Source: Fimicolochytrium jonesii
Taxonomy: Eukaryota
Reading direction: 5' to 3'
DNA: 64,000 bases
Assembly: GCF_025526975.1 (NCBI RefSeq)
Contig: NW_026515682.1
Coordinates: forward strand, 248,001-312,000
Part shown: one piece after another, positions 7,795 to 62,068 of the stretch
How positions within the stretch are numbered: the first letter of the stretch is position 1
Layout of the letters: each line of letters opens with the position of its first letter
Notes under the pieces: generated by a model
Told to the model about the DNA's origin: nothing
The model's input: only the letters and a program-made list of their open reading frames with translations
Databases searched by the model: none
Translations under genes and position numbers: made by a program

Positions 7795-10700
7795 TCAATC
7801 CTCAATCGCAGCAACTCTGTACTGCCGGCAACTTTGCGCCCATGCGAGAATCAGTCTACGTTTAAGCATCTTCTGAGCCCATGTCGCAGCGAAGATCTAA
7901 GCGCGTTAAAGGGTCAGTAGGCAGGTCGCCAGAGAATGGCGACAGCGCAAATCATACCATTTTGCGTTGATACTCAAAGTTCCGCATCTTGTTTCGGTGC
8001 TGCCAACGATTCCAGGCCCACTTTCGCATTCGTTTCGATAGAAACGCGTCGGCTTGCCTGAGCATATGCGCATAACCTTCAGCGTCCAACTTTTTCTTGA
8101 CAGGCTTAGGTGCTTCGGGTGGAAGCGTCGACGATCCTGGTTGAGCCGTTGATCGTCGCTCTTGTGCTGTGGAAACTCGCAGTTGTGTCGTTGACGGTCG
8201 CGCTTGTGTGGTTATGAGTCGCGATTGTGTCGTTGGTGCCTGCTGAGTGATTGAAACTCGCGGCTGCGTTTTTGAATCTCGCTGCTGCGTTGCTGACACT
8301 CGCTGCTGCGTCGCTGAAACTCGCTGCTCCGACGTTGTCACTCGCTGCTGCGTTGTTGTCACTCGGTGATGCGTTGCTGACGCCTGCTGTTGGGTCGTTG
8401 CAACTCGCTGTTGCGCCGTTGATACTCGATGTTGTGCCACAGATGCTGGACCGCCGCTATGAACCTCCCGCATTACAACCCCATCGCTGTGCTTTGACAG
8501 GCTCACAGACCTGATGTTTGAGGGCTGAACTGAAGACGGCCGAGCACTAAGGACCGGTGTTCCGGAAATGGCCTTCGTGGGACTGGGAGATCGCGCGGAT
8601 AAAGTGGGTTGGATCGCGGAAGGACGAGAAGGTCGGGAAGACGAGGGGGCTGACGCCGGTTGTATCCGGGAGGATGCAGCCGCCTGTACACGTGCGGAAC
8701 GACGAGCACGAAAGACAGTGGCCCAGAGATGAAAGACTCGCCTTCTTGTAGCTTTGCGATCCATATACACCGCGACCTTTTCAAGTTCTTTATCCCGGAG
8801 GTTCTTTGTTCGACGACTGTTTTGCTTTGCAGCAGCCTGCTGCCAACGTGCGATCGCGGTACCCATCACATTCCCTTGATCAAACTGGATAGCGCTTCGG
8901 GTATTCAGAGCGACTGTTGCCGTGCGACGCCACCATTTGTCGAAATACGCAGGAAGCCGAATTTTCCGAACGGATTTCTGGTGCACCCGCAGGAGCTGCT
9001 CTCGCCTTTCCTGGCGATGTTTCACACGCGTGACCCATAGATGCCAAGATTGTCGAAGTTTTTGTTTCGCCAATGATGCCAGCACTGTATTCTTTCCTTC
9101 TTCCCGCTCACTCCTCCGATCAAGATGCCAGGCTCTCCATCCTTGCCAGCAATGATGCAGCAGCTTTTCCAAAGCGAACCGCCTTGCCTTCGCATTCCGA
9201 AGTGCATCAGTCCATTTTCGCCATGACTGCACCATCGTTCTTGCCCTCATAGTCGTGACGAGAAGTGGCTCCGTTGGAATAATATCGAATTGAAGCTGGT
9301 GTCTTTCTCTCATCCGAGCACTAAAGGCTCCCTCGGCTCTTCGTATGTCGCTCTGTTTGACGACCACAGCCCGCCAGGCTTTGAAAAGTCTCGTGTACTT
9401 GTGTTCGGTTACAATGATTTTCAAGTTCCTAAGCGCCTCCGCTTTCCTGCGTAGGTTGTGCTTCTTTTTGCTTTTCTGTTTCCATACTTGGAACAGCTCT
9501 ATGACGGTCCTGATGTTCAAACGCCTCTTCAACAATCGACAAGCAGTTGCCTGAGCCGTCAGCAGCGTCCATCGGCAGAACGCCCGTTTCGTTACGTTTA
9601 TGTTATAGGCAACTGCTATTTGCCGTTCAATCCGTTTCCGTAAGCTCAAAATGCTGGCCTGATCTTTCCAATGCTCGAAAGTTCTCCTCAAGCAGCGAAT
9701 GTCGAACTGTCGAGTAGCCAGCACTCGTAGGCGGTGGTGTGCAATGTAGATGTTATGGAGGGCATCGAATGTACGGCGCATAAGCGTAACTCGTTGATGA
9801 TCGACGGCCAGGTCTTCGTGCATCTTCCGGATTTGCTCCTCCCTCTTCACCAAATACTGGCGACGCCACGTTCTCCAGCTTTGTATGGTACACACGTAAA
9901 GTGCTGCTGAGCGTGCTCTGTCCTCGGCTTCCCTGGCTCGTTGCAACGCACGCGTCCACTGTCCAAAAGCATTCCGTGTCGCATAGAATAGATGAGCTCG
10001 ATGTGCTTGGATGTCGCGCTGTTGCGCGCAATATAACGAATACGACCAGGCTTGGAACGAAGCCTGCATCGTCAACGCTTCATGGCGTGCCGTGAGTGGA
10101 GCTGCCATCAATCGGTAGAGCTTAGTGGCTTTCTGTGAATGATGCCAGTAAGCTAGCGTATTCATCATAAGCTTAGCTCGATATGCAGCGTCGGCGCTGG
10201 CATAATCGGCCCGCCGGCTTCTTGTCGTTTCACGAAGTTGTGCGATCAGAGCCCGCCACTTTGTGAATTCCCCATCACCTTCGGCGATATGTTCTGGGTG
10301 ATCTGCGTATATCGGCGTGTGGACCTCGGTCATGGACAAGATTCTGCCCATGGCACCCATTCTCTGAAAGATTCCAAGCTGCTCGGGTATCTCAAAGGCA
10401 CAATGAGTTCGTGTTTTCAGACGCATACCTTGTCGCTGATAGCTTCCGCTCACCTTGGTTGTAACAAACCTGGATCGCAGGGCTGTTTGGTTCGTCAGGG
10501 ACAGCAACCCGTTGTCGGGCTCGTGACATTCCAGCTGGAGCAGTCTAATGAAGAGCCGGTTAGCGTCAGCTCAAGAAGCGCTAAGACGGGAGACCGTGAA
10601 AAGTGATCATACACAATAGCATCAGGAGCAAGACCTGCCCATGTCTTCCAAATCCACATTCGGAATATCGTTCCCAGGCAGCGCTGCTGATGGAGCCTCG

Positions 10701-32622: not shown

Positions 32623-33635
32623 ATGACAGAAGAAGCGCCTACGGAAACTACCAGCGACTACAGACGGAAATGCAAGCTATGCGGGAGGGCTCCGCCGCTT
32701 TTCAGCGTTGGAAGTGCTACAGTTGACGATACAGAGAGGTGGCACAGAACCGGGAAGCAAAACGGAAAGCGAGGGAAGAGGAGAAGCGCTTGGCGGATGA
32801 GCAGCGGCCACCACAGGCACTCAGAGCGGTCGAGGAGCGGCGGATAGCAGCAGAGCGGGTTTTAGCAGAGATGCGCAGAGCAAAAGAAAGAACAGCGACT
32901 GGCAGAGGCATTCAGAGCGGTCCATGGCTGGCGGATAGCGGAAGAGGAGCGGTTGGCAGCGATGCGCAGAGCAGACGAAGAGCAGCGAATAATGGAAGAG
33001 CAGCGGCTAGCAGATATACGGAGAGACGAAGACCTCACAGCCCAGGCGCGACTGGACGAGATACGGCGAGAGCAGGAACTATGAGAGGAACAAGTGGGGT
33101 TAAAAGAGGAACGGCTGGCCGAAATCCGGCAGGTTCAGGAAGCAGCCGCGCTTAGACTGCGCGTGGAAGAGGAACGGCTAGCATAAATCCGGCAGGCTCA
33201 GGAAGAAGCAGCGCTTCCACTGCGCGAGGAAGAAGAACGGTGTGAGACCACACGCCTAGCTAAGGCAGCAGAAGGGACATCAATAGGAGATACGCCGGTT
33301 AGACGAGGAGGGAGCAGCCGCCAAGCTTCGGTTGGAACCATGAGCAGATGATGGACATCCAGTCGTTGATTCGGGAGCTGCAAATGGAGGTGCGGAACAT
33401 GAGTGAGGAATTGGCCCAAAGGAACGCAACAATACAGCAAGTCAATGCTCAACTCGAACAAAGCGATGCTCAACTCGAGGGACTCAGTTCTCGACTCAAG
33501 CAACGAGGTGCTCAACTCGAGGAGCTCAATCCTCTAGTCGAGGAAAACGCCCGCACCAAGGCAACATTAGAGCAACGCAATGCTCAACACAGACGGGAAC
33601 AGGCGGACTTTGTGCAATTACTGCTAGATCTTTAA
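32623..33635 (+). pseudogene. Degenerate EER/LAE-rich coiled-coil coding relic
   Basis: Repeated GAGGAACGGCT(G/A)GC..AATCCGGCAGG units shift frame and contain stops. Only the last ~95 codons are clean. Confidence 0.5.
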
Positions 33636-42116: not shown

Positions 42117-43311
42117 ATGACGAGTGCGAACTTCCGCAAAGCCTACTACTCCTCGCTGGGCGTCCAAGTTGTCGAAGTGAAGCCGTCCCTCGAAACCGCT
42201 CTCCAAGGCGACATCCTTAGTAAGTTTTGTCCTATCGTGGGTCCTCCAGGTTAAGAGTCGCTCTATAGCGCAGTACTAAGACACTCTTCCCTGTCGCAGA
42301 CATTGAGCGCCTAAACAAATTGTGCCTGTGGGTGCGCATCCCGCACTCGTACCGGGCACTGGTATGGAAGGTGCTCCTAGGGACGGTATCCTTGACCAAG
42401 GAGGTGTGGGGTTTTGCAGACGCTCAGCGGGCTGAGCAGTATGGCGATCTGAGGAGGTGTGTGCAGTGTATGGATGGAGGCAGCAGGTGGGTGGGGCCAA
42501 CGCAAATCGCAAAGCGAGTCATATTATTGATGTCATGGCTCCGCTTTGCTTTTCCAGAGCCGATGAGGAACTCACACCCTCGACAATGGTTCGCATGCTA
42601 CTGATCCAGCTTGACACGGACGATCAAGTGCCGCATCATCTATCCGGATCACTGGACCGCTCCAAATCATCACATCTGCTTGCACTCGCCAACACAATCC
42701 TGGAGATCTGCGAAGAGAACGAGGAAGAGGCGTACTGGCTATTTGAGTACTTTGTGCGGAAGTACCGTGTTCCGCTTGTCGTGCATGACAGAACATCAGC
42801 GGATAGCGGGGTTCGGGAAAAGCCAGACGGCCACGACATCTCCACCTCTCCAGACTCCGACGCTGACCCACCCCCATCCCCCATCGCAAAACTCGAAGAA
42901 GACCGCATCAGCATGGAAATCGGCGCCCTCTCCACCCTCCTCAAAACCCACAACGAAGAGCTTCTCACCCACATCCTCTCCCTCGGCCGCCCGCTCTCAA
43001 CTTACTGCTATGCCTGGTTCCGCACCTACTTTGCCAGCGTGGTGCCTCCGCACTGCCTCGAGGGCGTCTGGGACATCCTCATTGGCGGCGCACCGGGCAT
43101 ATTGCCATATCTGGGCCTGAGTGTGTTTCTGGCGAGTAAGCGCAAGATCCTTGCTGTGCGCACGTCGGCGCAGCTGGTGGAGTTGCTGAGTCAGGTGGAG
43201 AACATTGTCGATATGGACGCGGTGGCGAATACGGCGATCGATATGTGGGAGCGGCCGGTACTGGAGGGCATGTCGAAGGAGCTCAGGAAGGCTTTGGGAT
43301 ACAATTTCTGA
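42117..43311 (+). CDS. TBC1D7: TBC1 domain family member 7 (TSC complex subunit)
   Basis: NFRKAYYSSLG..VEVKPSLE, YRALVWKVLLG, WFRTYFASV, VWDILIGG and AIDMWE. Confidence 0.88.
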
Positions 43312-43420: not shown

Positions 43421-43671
43421 ACCCATAGTTACGCAGCTTCCACACAATCTAGATGTTCGAATAAAGGCCAAGATCGGGTCGAATTTGATTTACAGACAAT
43501 CCAACTGAACTCCGCTCGAACATCGTTCGTCGGCAGCCATCGTCAACCAGGATGCGTTGCACGCTTTGTCATTTTACAAGTTGCCATCATCGGCGACGCC
43601 TCAGGCAGAGGTACAATGATGTGGATGGCAGATAACCACCACGGAAAATGGAATGGGGTGAAAATTCTAGA

Positions 43672-45177
43672 CTACCGGTTACGGGAGAATGCGTCTGGTC
43701 TGCGGCCATCGCCAAACACCACCGAACGCACAATCGAGACGAAATTCTTGGTGCTTAGGACGTCCCGATTGTGCACTTTCATCCGTAGTCGTAGTGGTCG
43801 TCTTCCAGGAATCTCAAATGGCGTCCAGTCCTGGTTGATACATTCGGGGTTGGGGCAACCCACCAATCCATGGACGAATTCCATTCTTCCCTTTCGAGCT
43901 TGCCACGGCCGAGGTGACAGCCGGCGTCGGATGTTTTTCCTCACACGCCCGTGGCAGTGTGGGCACACGGACGACGTTCGATACTCATCCAGCAAGTAGC
44001 ATGGAATGCCGTTTCTCGCAAAGAGTGTGCGGAATCTGTTCCATGATGAGTTAGCATAATGATACATAAAAAACAATGATGGTCACTCACCCTTTGGTCT
44101 TTGATGACTCCTGAAAGCGCATGGTTTTTCCAGCGTCGCTCCAATCACCCAAGATGACCGAAAAATGCTTTCCATACAGGCGTCGCATGTTTTTGATGAG
44201 CTTGCTCTCAGATTTTTGCCGCAGTGAGAACGCCTTGAATCTGCGAGCTACGTGAATCTCATCCTGGTAAAACTCATCCAGGGCGGGATCTGGGATATGG
44301 ATGTCAGCCCATGTATTACCAAATTTGAAAATCAAAGAAGTGGAACATCATACCCGCATGTTTGTAATGCACAATGAACGCTCAGAACGCCTCGATGTTC
44401 ATGCTCTTGTGCGATGGAATATGTGATTCCATCTCTGCGATGCCGGCATTGATCTTTCGCTCCGTCATGTCTCTCCGAAAGTACCGAGACTTTGTCTCGA
44501 CCGCCCGTTGATTGGATGTGTATCTGATACGGGGTGGTGCATTGTGAGATTACTACTGCCCTGCTGTCCCCGCTGTCGCCCCTGTCCCCGCTGTCGCCGC
44601 TGTCCCCGCCGCGCCCGCTGTCGCCGCTGTCCCCGCTATCCCCGCTGTCCCCGCTGTCGCCGCTGTCGCCGCTATCCCCGCTATCCCCGCTATCCCTGCT
44701 GTCCCCGCCGCGCCCGCTGTCCCCGCTGTCGCCGCCCCCGCCATCCCCTTCGTTCCACATTCCGCAATCAGCTGAAACGTACCTAAATGGCCGCTCCTTC
44801 TTGATGTCTCGACAGAACAAGAGGTCACGCTTGCCCGGATCAATGCTGACGATGTTTGGAGCCTCCCGTAGTTCGGCGATGTGGTGCTCAAAATACAGCT
44901 GCTTGACTTCTTCCCGCATCTGGGCCTTGCTGCGCTTCCGGGCCCGATGCCCATACTTGAGCCCTGGCTTCTTGAAGTGGATGGTGGCGGAATACCCGTT
45001 TGTGCTGATTGATCCATCAAATTTAAGATCAAGCTTCTTTCGATGCTTGAAGACCTTGTCCTGCAATGCGTCATTCAGCGAGGTGATTGAAATAGGCGCA
45101 GAAGGATAGAGACTTACATTCACGTTGAGAAACTGCCCCCACAGCTCCTGCTTGCGTTGATCGGTGAATTTCCCCAT
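43672..45177 (-). pseudogene. Fanzor1 (eukaryotic TnpB-like RNA-guided endonuclease) with 4 introns, 5'-truncated, one premature TGA
   Basis: Spliced reading gives FDGSISTNG, RuvC-I SIDPGKRD, FRYTSNQRAVET, RQKSESKLI, ILGDWSDAG, RuvC-II LLDEYRTS, Zn finger CPHC..CPNPEC and RuvC-III NRDVLS..RPDAFSR. Introns: 45117-45061, 44782-44524, 44353-44290 and 44090-44036. Confidence 0.9.
44559..44744 (-). repeat. 9-bp GC-rich minisatellite (GG[G/C]GA[C/T]AGC, about 20 units) inside Fanzor intron 2
   Basis: Plus strand reads cccgctgtc/gccgctgtc/cccgctatc tandem units. Confidence 0.92.
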
Positions 45178-45466
45178 GCAGCGTCCTCATCAGGGGCATT
45201 TCCAACGATGTGTGTGAGGAGAAACGCTCATTTTATGGTTTGTGATCGAACAGCAGAATCCTCTCATTGAAAGCGTTTCCTTTCTAGAGCAAACATGCGG
45301 CCACAGTCTAATGATAAGAAGATGACACAGAGCAGATTCCTGGTCTAGATGCAATGTCCTATCTACGAATGTGATCTGTCGTTATATGTGCGAAAAGGAT
45401 CTTAACAATGTGTAGTTGGACCGTGCCTTTCTATGATGATGTGCGAGGTAAAGATGCAATATGAAA

Positions 45467-48400
45467 CTAAGCTCGTACTAGTGTCAACACGAACTTCGAG
45501 TTGGAGACCTATTGAACGAAGGAGAGAGAATTAAGTAGATGACCAAGCCAAAGGCAAACATGTCATGGGAGCTTACCTCTTGCTCGATCTCGAGGACAAC
45601 ATCGGCACCGCTTTTCTTTGCGTCGATGTTCTCAACGCCCTGCTTCAAGCTCTTGAGCAGGAAGTCCTTCTGATCTTGCAGGACTGTTTGCAGCTCGTTG
45701 TTGGGATCCGAAACGATCTTGATGTAGTAGAGGATGTCATCGGTGGGCTGCAGCTTGGCCTATAGACATGAAAGATGAAAGGTATAAATCACAGTGCCAG
45801 GAAACCTCATGCCAAAGTGGATCATTCACGCAGCTTACCTCCTTGCGTGACCGTTGCACACGGTTGATAACCTCCCGGGCCAAACCCTCGTTGATGAGGC
45901 TCTGGTCCAATGCCGTGTCCAAGATGACCAGAACATCACCGCTCCCATGGGCGTGGTAGGTGCTACCCTTCTGTCCCTCGTCATCGAAGTACCTGGTGAC
46001 TTGCAAGTCACCTTCCCCAAGCTCAATGCCGTTGACCACAAGCTTGTTCGTGGAGACGTATTTCTTGATGTCGTCCTGAGAAACAGTGGCAAGCCCAGTC
46101 TTCACCTTCGGCAGATCCTTTTTCAGCTTGCCGCCCAATGTCTTCCAGTCGGGGATAAGCTTGTACTTGATGCCGTACTTTGCTTCTTCGGATGTTACCG
46201 TCACGGTGCGGATGTTCAGTTCATCGACAATGTAATCCTCGAGAGCCTTGACATCGGAGTGGAACTGCGCGTCCGGATGGATGATGACAAGCTCGCGCAA
46301 AGGCGTCTTCAGAGGCAGGGTCTTCTGGTCGCGGATGTATCGCCCGGATTCGATGACGGTCTGCATCCGGCCCACGGCGCGCTCGATGTCGGCGTTGAAG
46401 TATGCGGATTTTGGTTCAGGGAAGGGCAGGAAGTGGATACTACGCGTGTCCTCCTTTGTAGCCGGCATGCACGTCTTCAGGTTTTGGTACATCGTTTCCA
46501 CAATGAACGGTGTGAAGGGAGCCATCAACTTCGAGAGAGTGAACAGCACCTCGAAGAGCACGTTCAGGGCGGTGACAGCCTCCGCCGGCCCGTTGTCACC
46601 CTTCAGACGCTTGCGGTTGAAGCGGACATACCAGTTCGTCAAGGAATCAATCAGGTTCAGAAGGCGAGGAGTGACCGTGTACAATCGGTAAGCGGCCATC
46701 TCCGCCCTGACGAAGTCGATAAGCGTCTGCGTCGAGGCGAGGATCCACTTGTCCATGACATTGCGATCGCCTGACAAGTCCATCTCAGGGTTGTACTGGA
46801 AATCGACGTTGTGCTCTTTCTTCAACAAGGCGAGCTGGGCAAAGAAGAACCGGTAGGCGTTGTACCACGGCAACAGCACCTTTGCAACCAGCTCCTTCAC
46901 TCCTTCCTCCCTGAACCTCAGGGATTCGGCCCGCACGGCAGGGGAGCCGATGAGGTACAGACGGAGAACATCGGCTCCGTACGTGTGCATGACGTCGTTC
47001 GGGTCAGGGTAGTTCTTCAGACGCTTCGACATCTTCTTTCCATCGCTGGCAAGAATCAAACCGTTGACAACGACGTTCTTAAACGGTGGCGTGTCGAAAA
47101 GATGTGTGGAGAGGACCATCAGCGTGTAGAACCAACCACGTGTTTGGTCGATACCCTCCGCAATGAAATCCGCTGGGAAGGTGCCGTTGAACTTTTGTTC
47201 ATTTTCGAAGGGGTAGTGCTGCTGTGCGTAGGGCATGCTTCCACTTTCGAACCAACAGTCGAAAACTTCGGGAATTCTGCGCAGGTCTCCTTTGCCCTTC
47301 TTCGATGGGATAGTGATGTGGTCAATCTTATCCCGGTGGAGATCAGTGATGCCTTGGACACCCGACAAAGCCGTGAGCTCCTCAACGGAACCAATAGCGA
47401 CGACTTCCTCGTAATCTTCGCTGACCCAGAGAGGGATGGGTGTTCCCCAGTAACGGTTGCGGGAGATGTTCCAATCGCGGGCGTTCTCGAGCCAGTTGTG
47501 GAATTTCTTTTCTTTGATGGTCTCAGGAACCCAGTAGGTCTTTTTATTGTTCGCCAGAAGCTTGTCGTTGATGTTCGATACTCGCACGAACCATCCTGGA
47601 ACAGCTTTGTAGATGAGGGGCGTGTCGGAACGCCAGCAGAAGGGGTAACTGTGCGTGATCTGTGACTGCCGGATAAGTCTGCCCTTCGTCTTCAGGTCCT
47701 TCTGGATCTGCTTGTCCGCGTCTTTGACGTAGACGCCGACATAGTCCGTGATTTCGCTCGTGAAGCATCCGGTCGCGTCCACTGGGTTGGGCAAGTCACC
47801 TTCCCCAGTGACGACGTCATTCGCAACGGCCACACGGTAATCGTCCTCACCGAAAGTAGGAGCGCAATGGACGATACCAGTACCGCTGTCCGCGGTGACA
47901 TAGGTGTCGGCCATGACCTTGAATGCTCTGCCCTTTCGGTCGCTAAAGAAGTCAAAGACCGGCTCGTACTCCAGACCCTTCAGATCTGATCCCTTGATCT
48001 TTTCGAGGATGGTGTACTTCGCCTTCTTCACATCCTTGTACAGAATGCCTAAGCAGCCTTCCAGCAAGATCCAGATAGCTCCCGTCTCCCCATCTTTGAT
48101 TTTGACGTATTCGAACTCAGGATGCACCGTAAGACCCAAGTTACTGGGGAGAGTCCAAGGTGTTGTCGTCCAAGCGAGGAGGGCAACGGACGGATCACTG
48201 ACAAGCGGGAATGAAATGACGACTGCGGTGATGGAGTTGTGCATGAGACTCGAGCGCTAGGAGCTCAGAAGCTCAAACGAAGCTCTTACCTGCAGGATCT
48301 GTCACATCCTTGTAGTTCTGTGTTGCCTCCATGTTAGAAAGCGGTGTGTGGACTCCGGTAGAGAAAGGCATAATCTATTCGAGAAGATCTCGTCCGGTTA

Positions 48401-52700: not shown

Positions 52701-53684
52701 GGCAACCAAAGTCACCAGGGCTTTTCCCAGCTTGCACCATGCGGCGGTAATGGCCCAAGCCTTCCGTGTCTTCGCCCTTTCTCAATAGACGATCCTCTGG
52801 GAGTTTGCAGACTGCTGTTACCGTGAATTGTGAATGGGCCCAGAAACTAATGCATGGAAACCGATATCAGCGAACCTTCATCACTACACGTCATCGCCTC
52901 CTTGCCAGGTCCATTCTTTTGGCACTTCTGAATATGCAAAGCCTTCTTTGTGCCATCATCCTCCGTCTCAAACGGTTCGCTGCTCGTCATCGTGACTTTG
53001 TCCACTGTCTCATCAATCTTCCTTTTGAGCTTGCACCACATTGAAGGTCCGCTGCTCACTGTCTCATCGATCTTCCTCTTGAGTTTGCACCACTCTGAAG
53101 GTCCGCTGCTCACTGTCTCGTCTATCATTGTCTTGAGCTTGCACCATTCTGAAGGTCCGCTTCCCGGGCCTTTACGTTCTTTTCTGCTTTGCGTCGGAAC
53201 AGCCTTTCCCGACGCGTCGGCATTCCCAAGACCATCGTGATCATCTCCCGGCAATCGCTTGATAATCGCTGAACCCGTGCTCTTCGCCACTTTCCGTTCT
53301 ACCAACCCCGGAATATGGCTTTTTCGTTGCTCTGTTCTCGGTTTTTTAACGGTGGTGTGCTTGTCGTTCCGTTTAAACGGAGTTGTCCGCTCGCAAGTCG
53401 CAAGCTGCGGGTTCGACGCAGACTCGTCCAGTAGGTCTTTCTGGTGCTTCTGCTTGGGCTCTTTCTCCCCCTTTATCCTCTTCGCCGGACGAGGAGTGTC
53501 TGCCAGCTCGCAAGCCTTTCGCTTCGGTGGTGTGAAAGCCACACTTTGTAAAGGGCCCGGCGTTTCGTTGCAACCCCGACGGGGGGTGGACGCGGCGTGC
53601 CCTGCCGTGGCGAGAATAACGATGTCAGCTGTGTCACGAGCGAGTACCTCGACCAGAAGTGCGTCCTACAATACCTTTGCCCAT
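49774..53684 (-). CDS. Fungal multidomain 2OG-Fe(II) dioxygenase (AlkB-type) with upstream SRA-like region and Cys cluster
   Basis: HxD motif MKWHDDGE, ALSMGS, LRLRHGDILIM and YEH...R. Upstream: FITHGGG, YAVLGYYRITHIW, CPTCKEVSPKVY..CLRHQC. Confidence 0.8.
53003..53161 (-). repeat. 3 x 54-bp coding tandem repeat (SGPSxWCKLKRKIDETVS)
   Basis: Units start at 53003, 53057 and 53111. Confidence 0.9.
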
Positions 53685-61985: not shown

Positions 61986-62068
61986 TTAGGGTTAGGGGTA
62001 GGGTTACAGAACTGTTCCGGGTCGGCGGGTTTTAGGGTTAGGGTTAGGGTTCGGGTTAGGGTTAGGGG
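61986..62068 (+). repeat. Interstitial telomeric (TTAGGG)n tract, degenerate, in two blocks
   Basis: ttagggttaggggtagggtta ... ttagggttagggttagggttcgggttagggttagggg. Confidence 0.88.

Follow-up and report, generated by a model that had tools for sequence, protein, structure and literature searches.

Fanzor1 proteins are eukaryotic relatives of the Cas12 gene-editing nucleases. The closest described system to the locus reported here is SpuFz1 of the SPu-1 elements of Spizellomyces punctatus (PDB 8gkh, 9ceu–9cez; PMC10432273, PMC3627910). In the available parts of these two papers, SpuFz1 is a single ORF. The accessible text of PMC10432273 names D383, E541, and D606 as its catalytic residues, reports no transposase inside Spu-1 elements, and describes partial and ghost Fanzor copies. 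As published, TAM recognition and heteroduplex binding in SpuFz1 fall to the REC domain and the N-terminal WED strand, and the SpuFz1 RNA consists of stem-loop 1, a linker (A29–C34), and stem 2. SPu-1 carries terminal inverted repeats of ~30 nt with TA at the ends.

Intron-containing Fanzors have also been described, in excerpts of PMC10530073 and, for CRe elements with five and ten exons, of PMC3627910. CRe-1/2/3 and CrFNuc of Chlamydomonas reinhardtii, which we compared by description only from parts of the same two papers, are multi-exon Fanzor1 with frequent 5′-truncated copies whose 3′ ends are intact. The CRe elements are Helitron2-associated and often have target duplications of 7–19 bp, whereas the present locus has only chance-level 8-mers. 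Parasitella parasitica Fanzor1 (PDB 9cf0–9cf3) has the same architecture as the protein family described below (E 2.4e-37) and likewise a Gly in the DPG motif; its identity is about 20%, and its insertions are larger.

Structure of the locus

The window was a stretch of 64,000 nucleotides from the chytrid Fimicolochytrium jonesii (contig NW_026515682.1). A Fanzor copy was found in a short gap between two housekeeping genes, a TBC1D7-like gene and an isoleucyl-tRNA synthetase (IleRS) gene (Table 1). Both neighbours had been named in a first-pass annotation made from the DNA letters, and both were confirmed. The same annotation had claimed four GT–AG introns. Splicing out all four gave one frame from 45186 to the terminal TAG. 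A purpose-written spliced aligner, run with a protein profile and no intron positions supplied, recovered the same four introns exactly, confirming the claimed coordinates and lengths. Its profile contained 16 of the 21 rows of alignment A1, one family member among them. The branch points claimed for introns 3 and 4 were also present, as CTGAC and CTAAC, respectively, just 5′ of the acceptors. The claim of a collinear spliced protein held for the continuous frame across the junctions, but its abbreviated translation hid an in-frame TGA and the missing N-terminal half. The gene structure is spliceosomal and eukaryotic: the flanking host genes have introns, and F. jonesii models are 88–100% identical to the locus.

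Table 1. Features of the Fanzor1 locus and its neighbours in transcript order of the element. Junction counts are from gene predictions, not reads, among 55 F. jonesii models; P0025 is included in the counts for introns 1 and 2.
Feature	Positions	Strand	Remarks
Isoleucyl-tRNA synthetase, 3′ part (class I, IleRS type)	45467..48256	-	Host gene outside the element; stop 45469-45467
First surviving exon piece	45118..45186	-	Family homology begins abruptly at ~45186
Intron 1	45061..45117	-	57 nt, phase 0, SpuFz1 residue 311; junction in 20/25 spanning models
Exon 2	44783..45060	-	WED part and RuvC-I; catalytic Asp (SpuFz1 D383) at 44841-44839
Intron 2	44524..44782	-	259 nt, phase 2, SpuFz1 residue 401; junction in 26/32 models
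Exon 3	44354..44523	-	Premature in-frame TGA at 44384-44382 (SpuFz1 residue 448)
Intron 3	44290..44353	-	64 nt, phase 1, SpuFz1 residue 458; junction in 38/40 models
Exon 4	44091..44289	-	RuvC helices, GDW motif; SpuFz1 match
Intron 4	44036..44090	-	55 nt, phase 2, SpuFz1 residue 524; junction in 42/42 models
Exon 5	43672..44035	-	RuvC-II Glu (E541) at 43986-43984; four-Cys zinc finger; RuvC-III Asp (D606) at 43764-43762; TAG at 43674-43672
Candidate omega-RNA 5′ leader and stem-loop 1	43621..43649	-	Stop distance as in SpuFz1; scaffold compared by eye
Possible remainder of the 75-nt omega-RNA scaffold	43575..43620	-	Ends in TA (43576-43575); weak, stem 2 not predicted
TBC1D7-like gene	42436..43311	+	Flanking host gene outside the element, convergent with it

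Intron 2 contains a 9-nt minisatellite (44559-44735, 19.7 copies). The opposite strand of the inner ~220 nt of this intron (44552-44773, the minisatellite plus flank) resembles the sense-strand intron read-through of two other family models, P0033 and P0054, with the motif IPFV.HS. The minisatellite is therefore likely inverted relative to those two copies, and the comparison, made with protein models only, suggests an inversion within intron 2 of the present copy that left both splice sites intact.

Other repeats were observed elsewhere in the window. A degenerate TTAGGG tract inside the contig (61985-62070, with six copies at 62032-62067) resembles an interstitial telomere repeat. Tandem repeats at 8240-8428 (21 nt), 32815-33240 (63–91 nt), and 53003-53161 (54 nt) are probably coding repeats.

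Homology to SpuFz1

Exons 2, 4, and 5 matched SpuFz1 (8gkh) at E-values of 4.9e-15, 2.6e-17, and 5.7e-28, respectively, and SpuFz1 ranked first among the solved structures, bearing out the kinship already claimed. The layout claimed for the RuvC residues and the zinc finger was also found: Asp, Glu, and Asp of the locus align with D383, E541, and D606 of SpuFz1, so the RuvC triad is conserved, and the CPHC and CPNPEC motifs of exon 5, between RuvC-II and RuvC-III, align with the SpuFz1 zinc finger. The exons gave only sub-threshold Pfam matches (best, Cas12f1-like_TNB, E 0.0038), and Pfam searches of SpuFz1 itself and of P0022, a full-length relative from F. jonesii, gave no match at E 0.05. 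Many relatives bear the precomputed label PF26935.

Damage to this copy

The in-frame TGA of exon 3 replaces a Ser that is present in all 40 family models matching the flanking motif (40 of the 55 models do). Alternative in-frame GT–AG splices that skip the TGA all cost at least 28 codons. The 5′ part is also missing. The fragment spans only SpuFz1 residues ~297–633, so the first ~290 SpuFz1-equivalent residues, which hold the REC lobe, are absent. Homology ends at ~45186, 281 nt short of the IleRS stop. When extended with frameshifts allowed into the 289 nt beyond 45186 on the upstream side, alignments of six of six family proteins scored no better than 30 shuffles, and a TBLASTN search across the window gave no other Fanzor piece among the matches listed. 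An LTHIVG-like stretch upstream of 45186 was rejected as further homology, its score not being above those of shuffles. As homology stops there and nothing was found upstream, the REC domain and the N-terminal WED strand are absent. On the evidence of its sequence, no working nuclease can come from this copy.

At 45177, the ATG corresponds to an internal Met, residue 404 of full-length P0022. One annotated protein, P0025 (KAI8818757.1, 159 aa), is 100% identical to the locus from this ATG to the TGA. Since the identity covers all 159 aa and ends at the TGA, P0025 is very probably the annotation of this very locus. If translated, the locus would yield only this product, without the REC lobe, the Glu, and the second Asp.

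Taken together, the locus is very likely a Fanzor1 copy, truncated at the 5′ end and carrying a nonsense codon, that comes from an intron-containing, multi-copy chytrid family probably borne by a transposon. The beginning of the guide RNA is likely still present in this copy, but a working nuclease cannot be made from it. Its left half may have been lost by deletion or incomplete transposition, with decay of the copy afterwards.

The family in F. jonesii

A search with exon 5 returned 13 proteins, every one an 'uncharacterized' F. jonesii model. Cluster look-ups and a second search raised the family to at least 58 such models, after exclusion of three unrelated short cluster members; 55 were examined first, and three, all partial, were added later. 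The models are scattered across numerous contigs, and the majority are incomplete or damaged. The C-terminus was reached by 39 of the 55 and the N-terminus by 14, in searches biased to the 3′ end. Seven long models are 88–96% identical pairwise. CpG-driven decay was considered: after eight mis-spliced models were dropped, 132 of 168 Arg changes in the remaining 47 of the 55 were to C, H, Q, or W, counts that share ancestry, but the observed/expected CpG ratio in the exons was 1.03. A wider profile search collected 5065 proteins at E 0.001, indicating a large family. A scan of metagenome and viral contigs with the single protein P0001 found no relative.

The whole core and triad were present in two of the 55 models, P0022 (KAI8821362.1, 761 aa; 625/625 core residues) and P0023 (623/625). 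Intact copies elsewhere had been suggested in advance, and these two appear intact, judged as gene models only. P0022 is collinear with SpuFz1, residues 129–759 aligning with SpuFz1 16–633 at E 4.6e-149 and 44% identity, and the enlarged REC lobe is present. In an AlphaFold2 model of P0022 (mean pLDDT 76), residues 1–133 are disordered, and a basic stretch, PRRKRRK, lies near the N-terminus. The predicted fold is that of SpuFz1 (E 3e-48), followed by PpFz1 and GtFz1; matches to Cas12f/g and TnpB were far weaker. The full-length members in the annotation seem undamaged and would probably cut DNA under RNA guidance.

P0022 keeps the equivalents of SpuFz1 D383, E541, and D606 and, among the TAM contacts checked (Q130, N133, R291, and Y345), all but N133, which is Ala; it also has Gly for N385. 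SPu-1 and the F. jonesii family are both multi-copy with partial copies, and the present locus has a candidate omega-RNA 5′ leader that resembles the SpuFz1 one and is equally far from the stop. In contrast to the single ORF of SpuFz1, the F. jonesii family has four introns in its 3′ half and a disordered N-terminal extension of 130 aa; it also has an insertion of ~11 residues near the C-terminus.

That this is an intron-containing chytrid Fanzor1 family, as first proposed, was borne out by F. jonesii models sharing the junctions. The further claim that ORF-based mining would miss it failed. Since dozens of its members are annotated NCBI proteins and a full-length one matches SpuFz1, protein searches do find the family. 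The accompanying remark that introns in Fanzors are known in general agrees with what is available of PMC10530073 and PMC3627910. We found no Fimicolochytrium Fanzor paper in the open full-text literature; PMC12247965, in its available part, contains both words without relation. The species name and three family-specific motifs were absent from the supplements of PMC10432273 and PMC10530073 as searched (cells to 400 characters, a second table without an organism column, one PDF each outside the search). The locus is a real but dead copy, and the family itself is a new member family of Fanzor1.

One of the 58 models, P0082 (EV422DRAFT_623327), joins a tyrosine-recombinase-like region (Phage_integrase, E 5.6e-4, below the cut-off) to a Fanzor piece. 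It is probably a fused model of adjacent elements and a possible transposase lead.

Intron history

A quick IQ-TREE analysis (24 rows, SH-aLRT only, midpoint root) placed the family as sister to P0056, a hypothetical and uncharacterized protein of Gaertneriomyces sp. JEL0708 (KAJ3177236), with an SH-aLRT of 100, within a group holding SpuFz1 and Rhizophlyctis proteins. This nearest relative is 52% identical and keeps the triad; at 637 aa, it is without the N-terminal extension of the F. jonesii family.

An alignment scan gave 45 related loci, and nine close ones were put through the spliced aligner; L003 was excluded from the intron comparison as a near-duplicate of L002. SpuFz1 positions 311, 401, 458, and 524 were each covered by eight of the nine loci, and none had an intron there. 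Other introns were found at residue 164 in five loci, at 585 in two, and at 534 in one. Three intron calls in L014, one of them at 526, adjoin frameshifts and are doubtful. With the related loci intronless at these sites and SpuFz1 encoded by one ORF, the simplest reading is that the four introns of the F. jonesii family were likely gained in this lineage.

Five metagenomic Fanzor1 loci (L001, L002, L004, L006, and L007) share the phase-1 intron at residue 164, which is absent from SpuFz1. It may be older and lost in SpuFz1. Another locus, L045:1951-3267, is an intronless ORF similar to SpuFz1. Its 3.3-kb contig is assigned to a Bacteroidota bin but is likely eukaryotic and mis-binned.

Candidate omega-RNA

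A TTTTCCG motif begins 23 nt past the stop, compared with 22 nt in SpuFz1, and 14 of 18 bases in this region agree by eye. The pattern for the region was made after the match was seen, and its chance figure of 0.05 is therefore too favourable. A hairpin at 43642-43621, equivalent to bases 8–29 of the SpuFz1 RNA, had pair probabilities of 0.63–0.86, and only 14 of 3000 random 22-mers from the window reached equal stability. At the three 5′-arm bases that differ (9, 11, and 12), the pairing partner in the hairpin has changed as well, by our own reading of the published pairings. Among related loci, L002 has TTTTCCG and a hairpin shortly past the stop, and L005 and L008 are without them. These results suggest that the 5′ part is probably a true omega-RNA homologue.

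The remainder is weaker. Folding did not predict stem 2 (pair probabilities about 0.01), and bases 20–75 resembled the SpuFz1 scaffold at chance level. An Rfam search gave a single match, also at chance level. A complete, usable omega-RNA at this locus is rather unlikely.

These features bear on a reading that adds to our main explanation and does not replace it: a copy with a dead protein whose complete omega-RNA (about 43649-43575 plus the flanking guide) would load full-length family proteins in trans, a role proposed for the ghost loci of SpuFz1. The leader and stem-loop 1 sit where SpuFz1 would place them and show what look like paired changes. Counted from the equivalent start, base 75 completes a TA, matching the SpuFz1 scaffold, and ghost omega-RNAs work with SpuFz1 according to PMC10432273. 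However, folding gives no stem 2, the fold of the 77 nt does not stand out (z -1.57; 12 of 200 shuffles), a TA at one given position is expected about 1 in 16 times by chance, and the end is not defined by any inverted repeat. We consider such guide donation possible, if doubtful.

Element ends and mobility

In the flanks of the locus, the longest exact inverted match and the longest direct match were both 8 nt, as expected by chance, and no terminal inverted repeat of the SPu-1 kind or target-site duplication was found. Two candidates, the inverted pair 43510-43527 / 45204-45221 (14/18) as element ends and the 8-mer at 45235 / 43576 as a target duplication, were rejected as being at chance level. 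Because a truncated copy is expected to have lost its left end, this result speaks for the present locus and not for the family. With no terminal repeat or duplication above chance, the case for mobility is made from copy number and from SPu-1. Terminal inverted repeats of 26 and 35 nt occur at the related loci L008 and L014, respectively, so such ends exist in the wider group. The L008 element itself (L008:2849-3415) is short, with its 26-nt repeats enclosing no more of a Fanzor1 than ~150 codons from the 3′ end, and is an internal-deletion derivative.

The several introns, as in host genes, the 130-aa extension that SpuFz1 lacks, and the missing element ends at this locus could instead point to a family of host genes, domesticated or multiplied in tandem, that has lost its tie to a mobile element. 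We regard this as very unlikely: the models are dispersed over numerous contigs and are mostly partial or damaged, the present copy is wedged into a short gap between two convergent housekeeping genes, and the relative SPu-1 has inverted repeats of 30–33 nt in the available text of PMC10432273 and PMC3627910. That the locus functions as a short RuvC-half protein, through TGA read-through or a sequencing error, is scarcely credible, for although triad and zinc finger are intact and the locus is 96% identical to P0020 and P0001, the REC domain and N-terminal WED strand are missing regardless of the TGA, and all 40 matching models have Ser at its position.

Discussion

We return to the reading of the locus as a dead copy of a multi-copy, likely transposon-borne family. 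By analogy with SpuFz1, the transcript of a full-length member such as P0022 would be spliced and the protein would enter the nucleus via its PRRKRRK stretch. It would bind an omega-RNA comprising the element's right end and about 15 nt of flanking DNA, and would cut TAM-adjacent DNA matching that guide, for example the empty allele of the insertion site. Cutting may favour persistence or spread of the element, with the transposase supplied in trans. The present copy would be a relic, possibly still a guide donor.

A bolder proposal would make this an uncatalogued and still active F. jonesii Fanzor1 family. Its four introns would have been gained after the split from the intronless SpuFz1 lineage, its many protein-dead copies, this one included, would keep omega-RNA and provide a handful of intact enzymes (P0022, P0023) with genome-wide guides in trans, and its TAM would have shifted from CATA. 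Taken as a whole, we consider this unlikely.

The locus is an ordinary dead copy, and its worth lies in pointing to the family. P0022 is a natural, annotated, and apparently whole relative of SpuFz1 that could be assayed unchanged. One of its TAM-contacting residues differs, which could give Fanzor editors a broader choice of targets. The close pair of lineages, one intron-rich and one intronless, would suit work on how a mobile gene acquires introns. The many partial copies would allow a test of whether dead copies donate guides in trans, a question raised for the SpuFz1 ghost loci.
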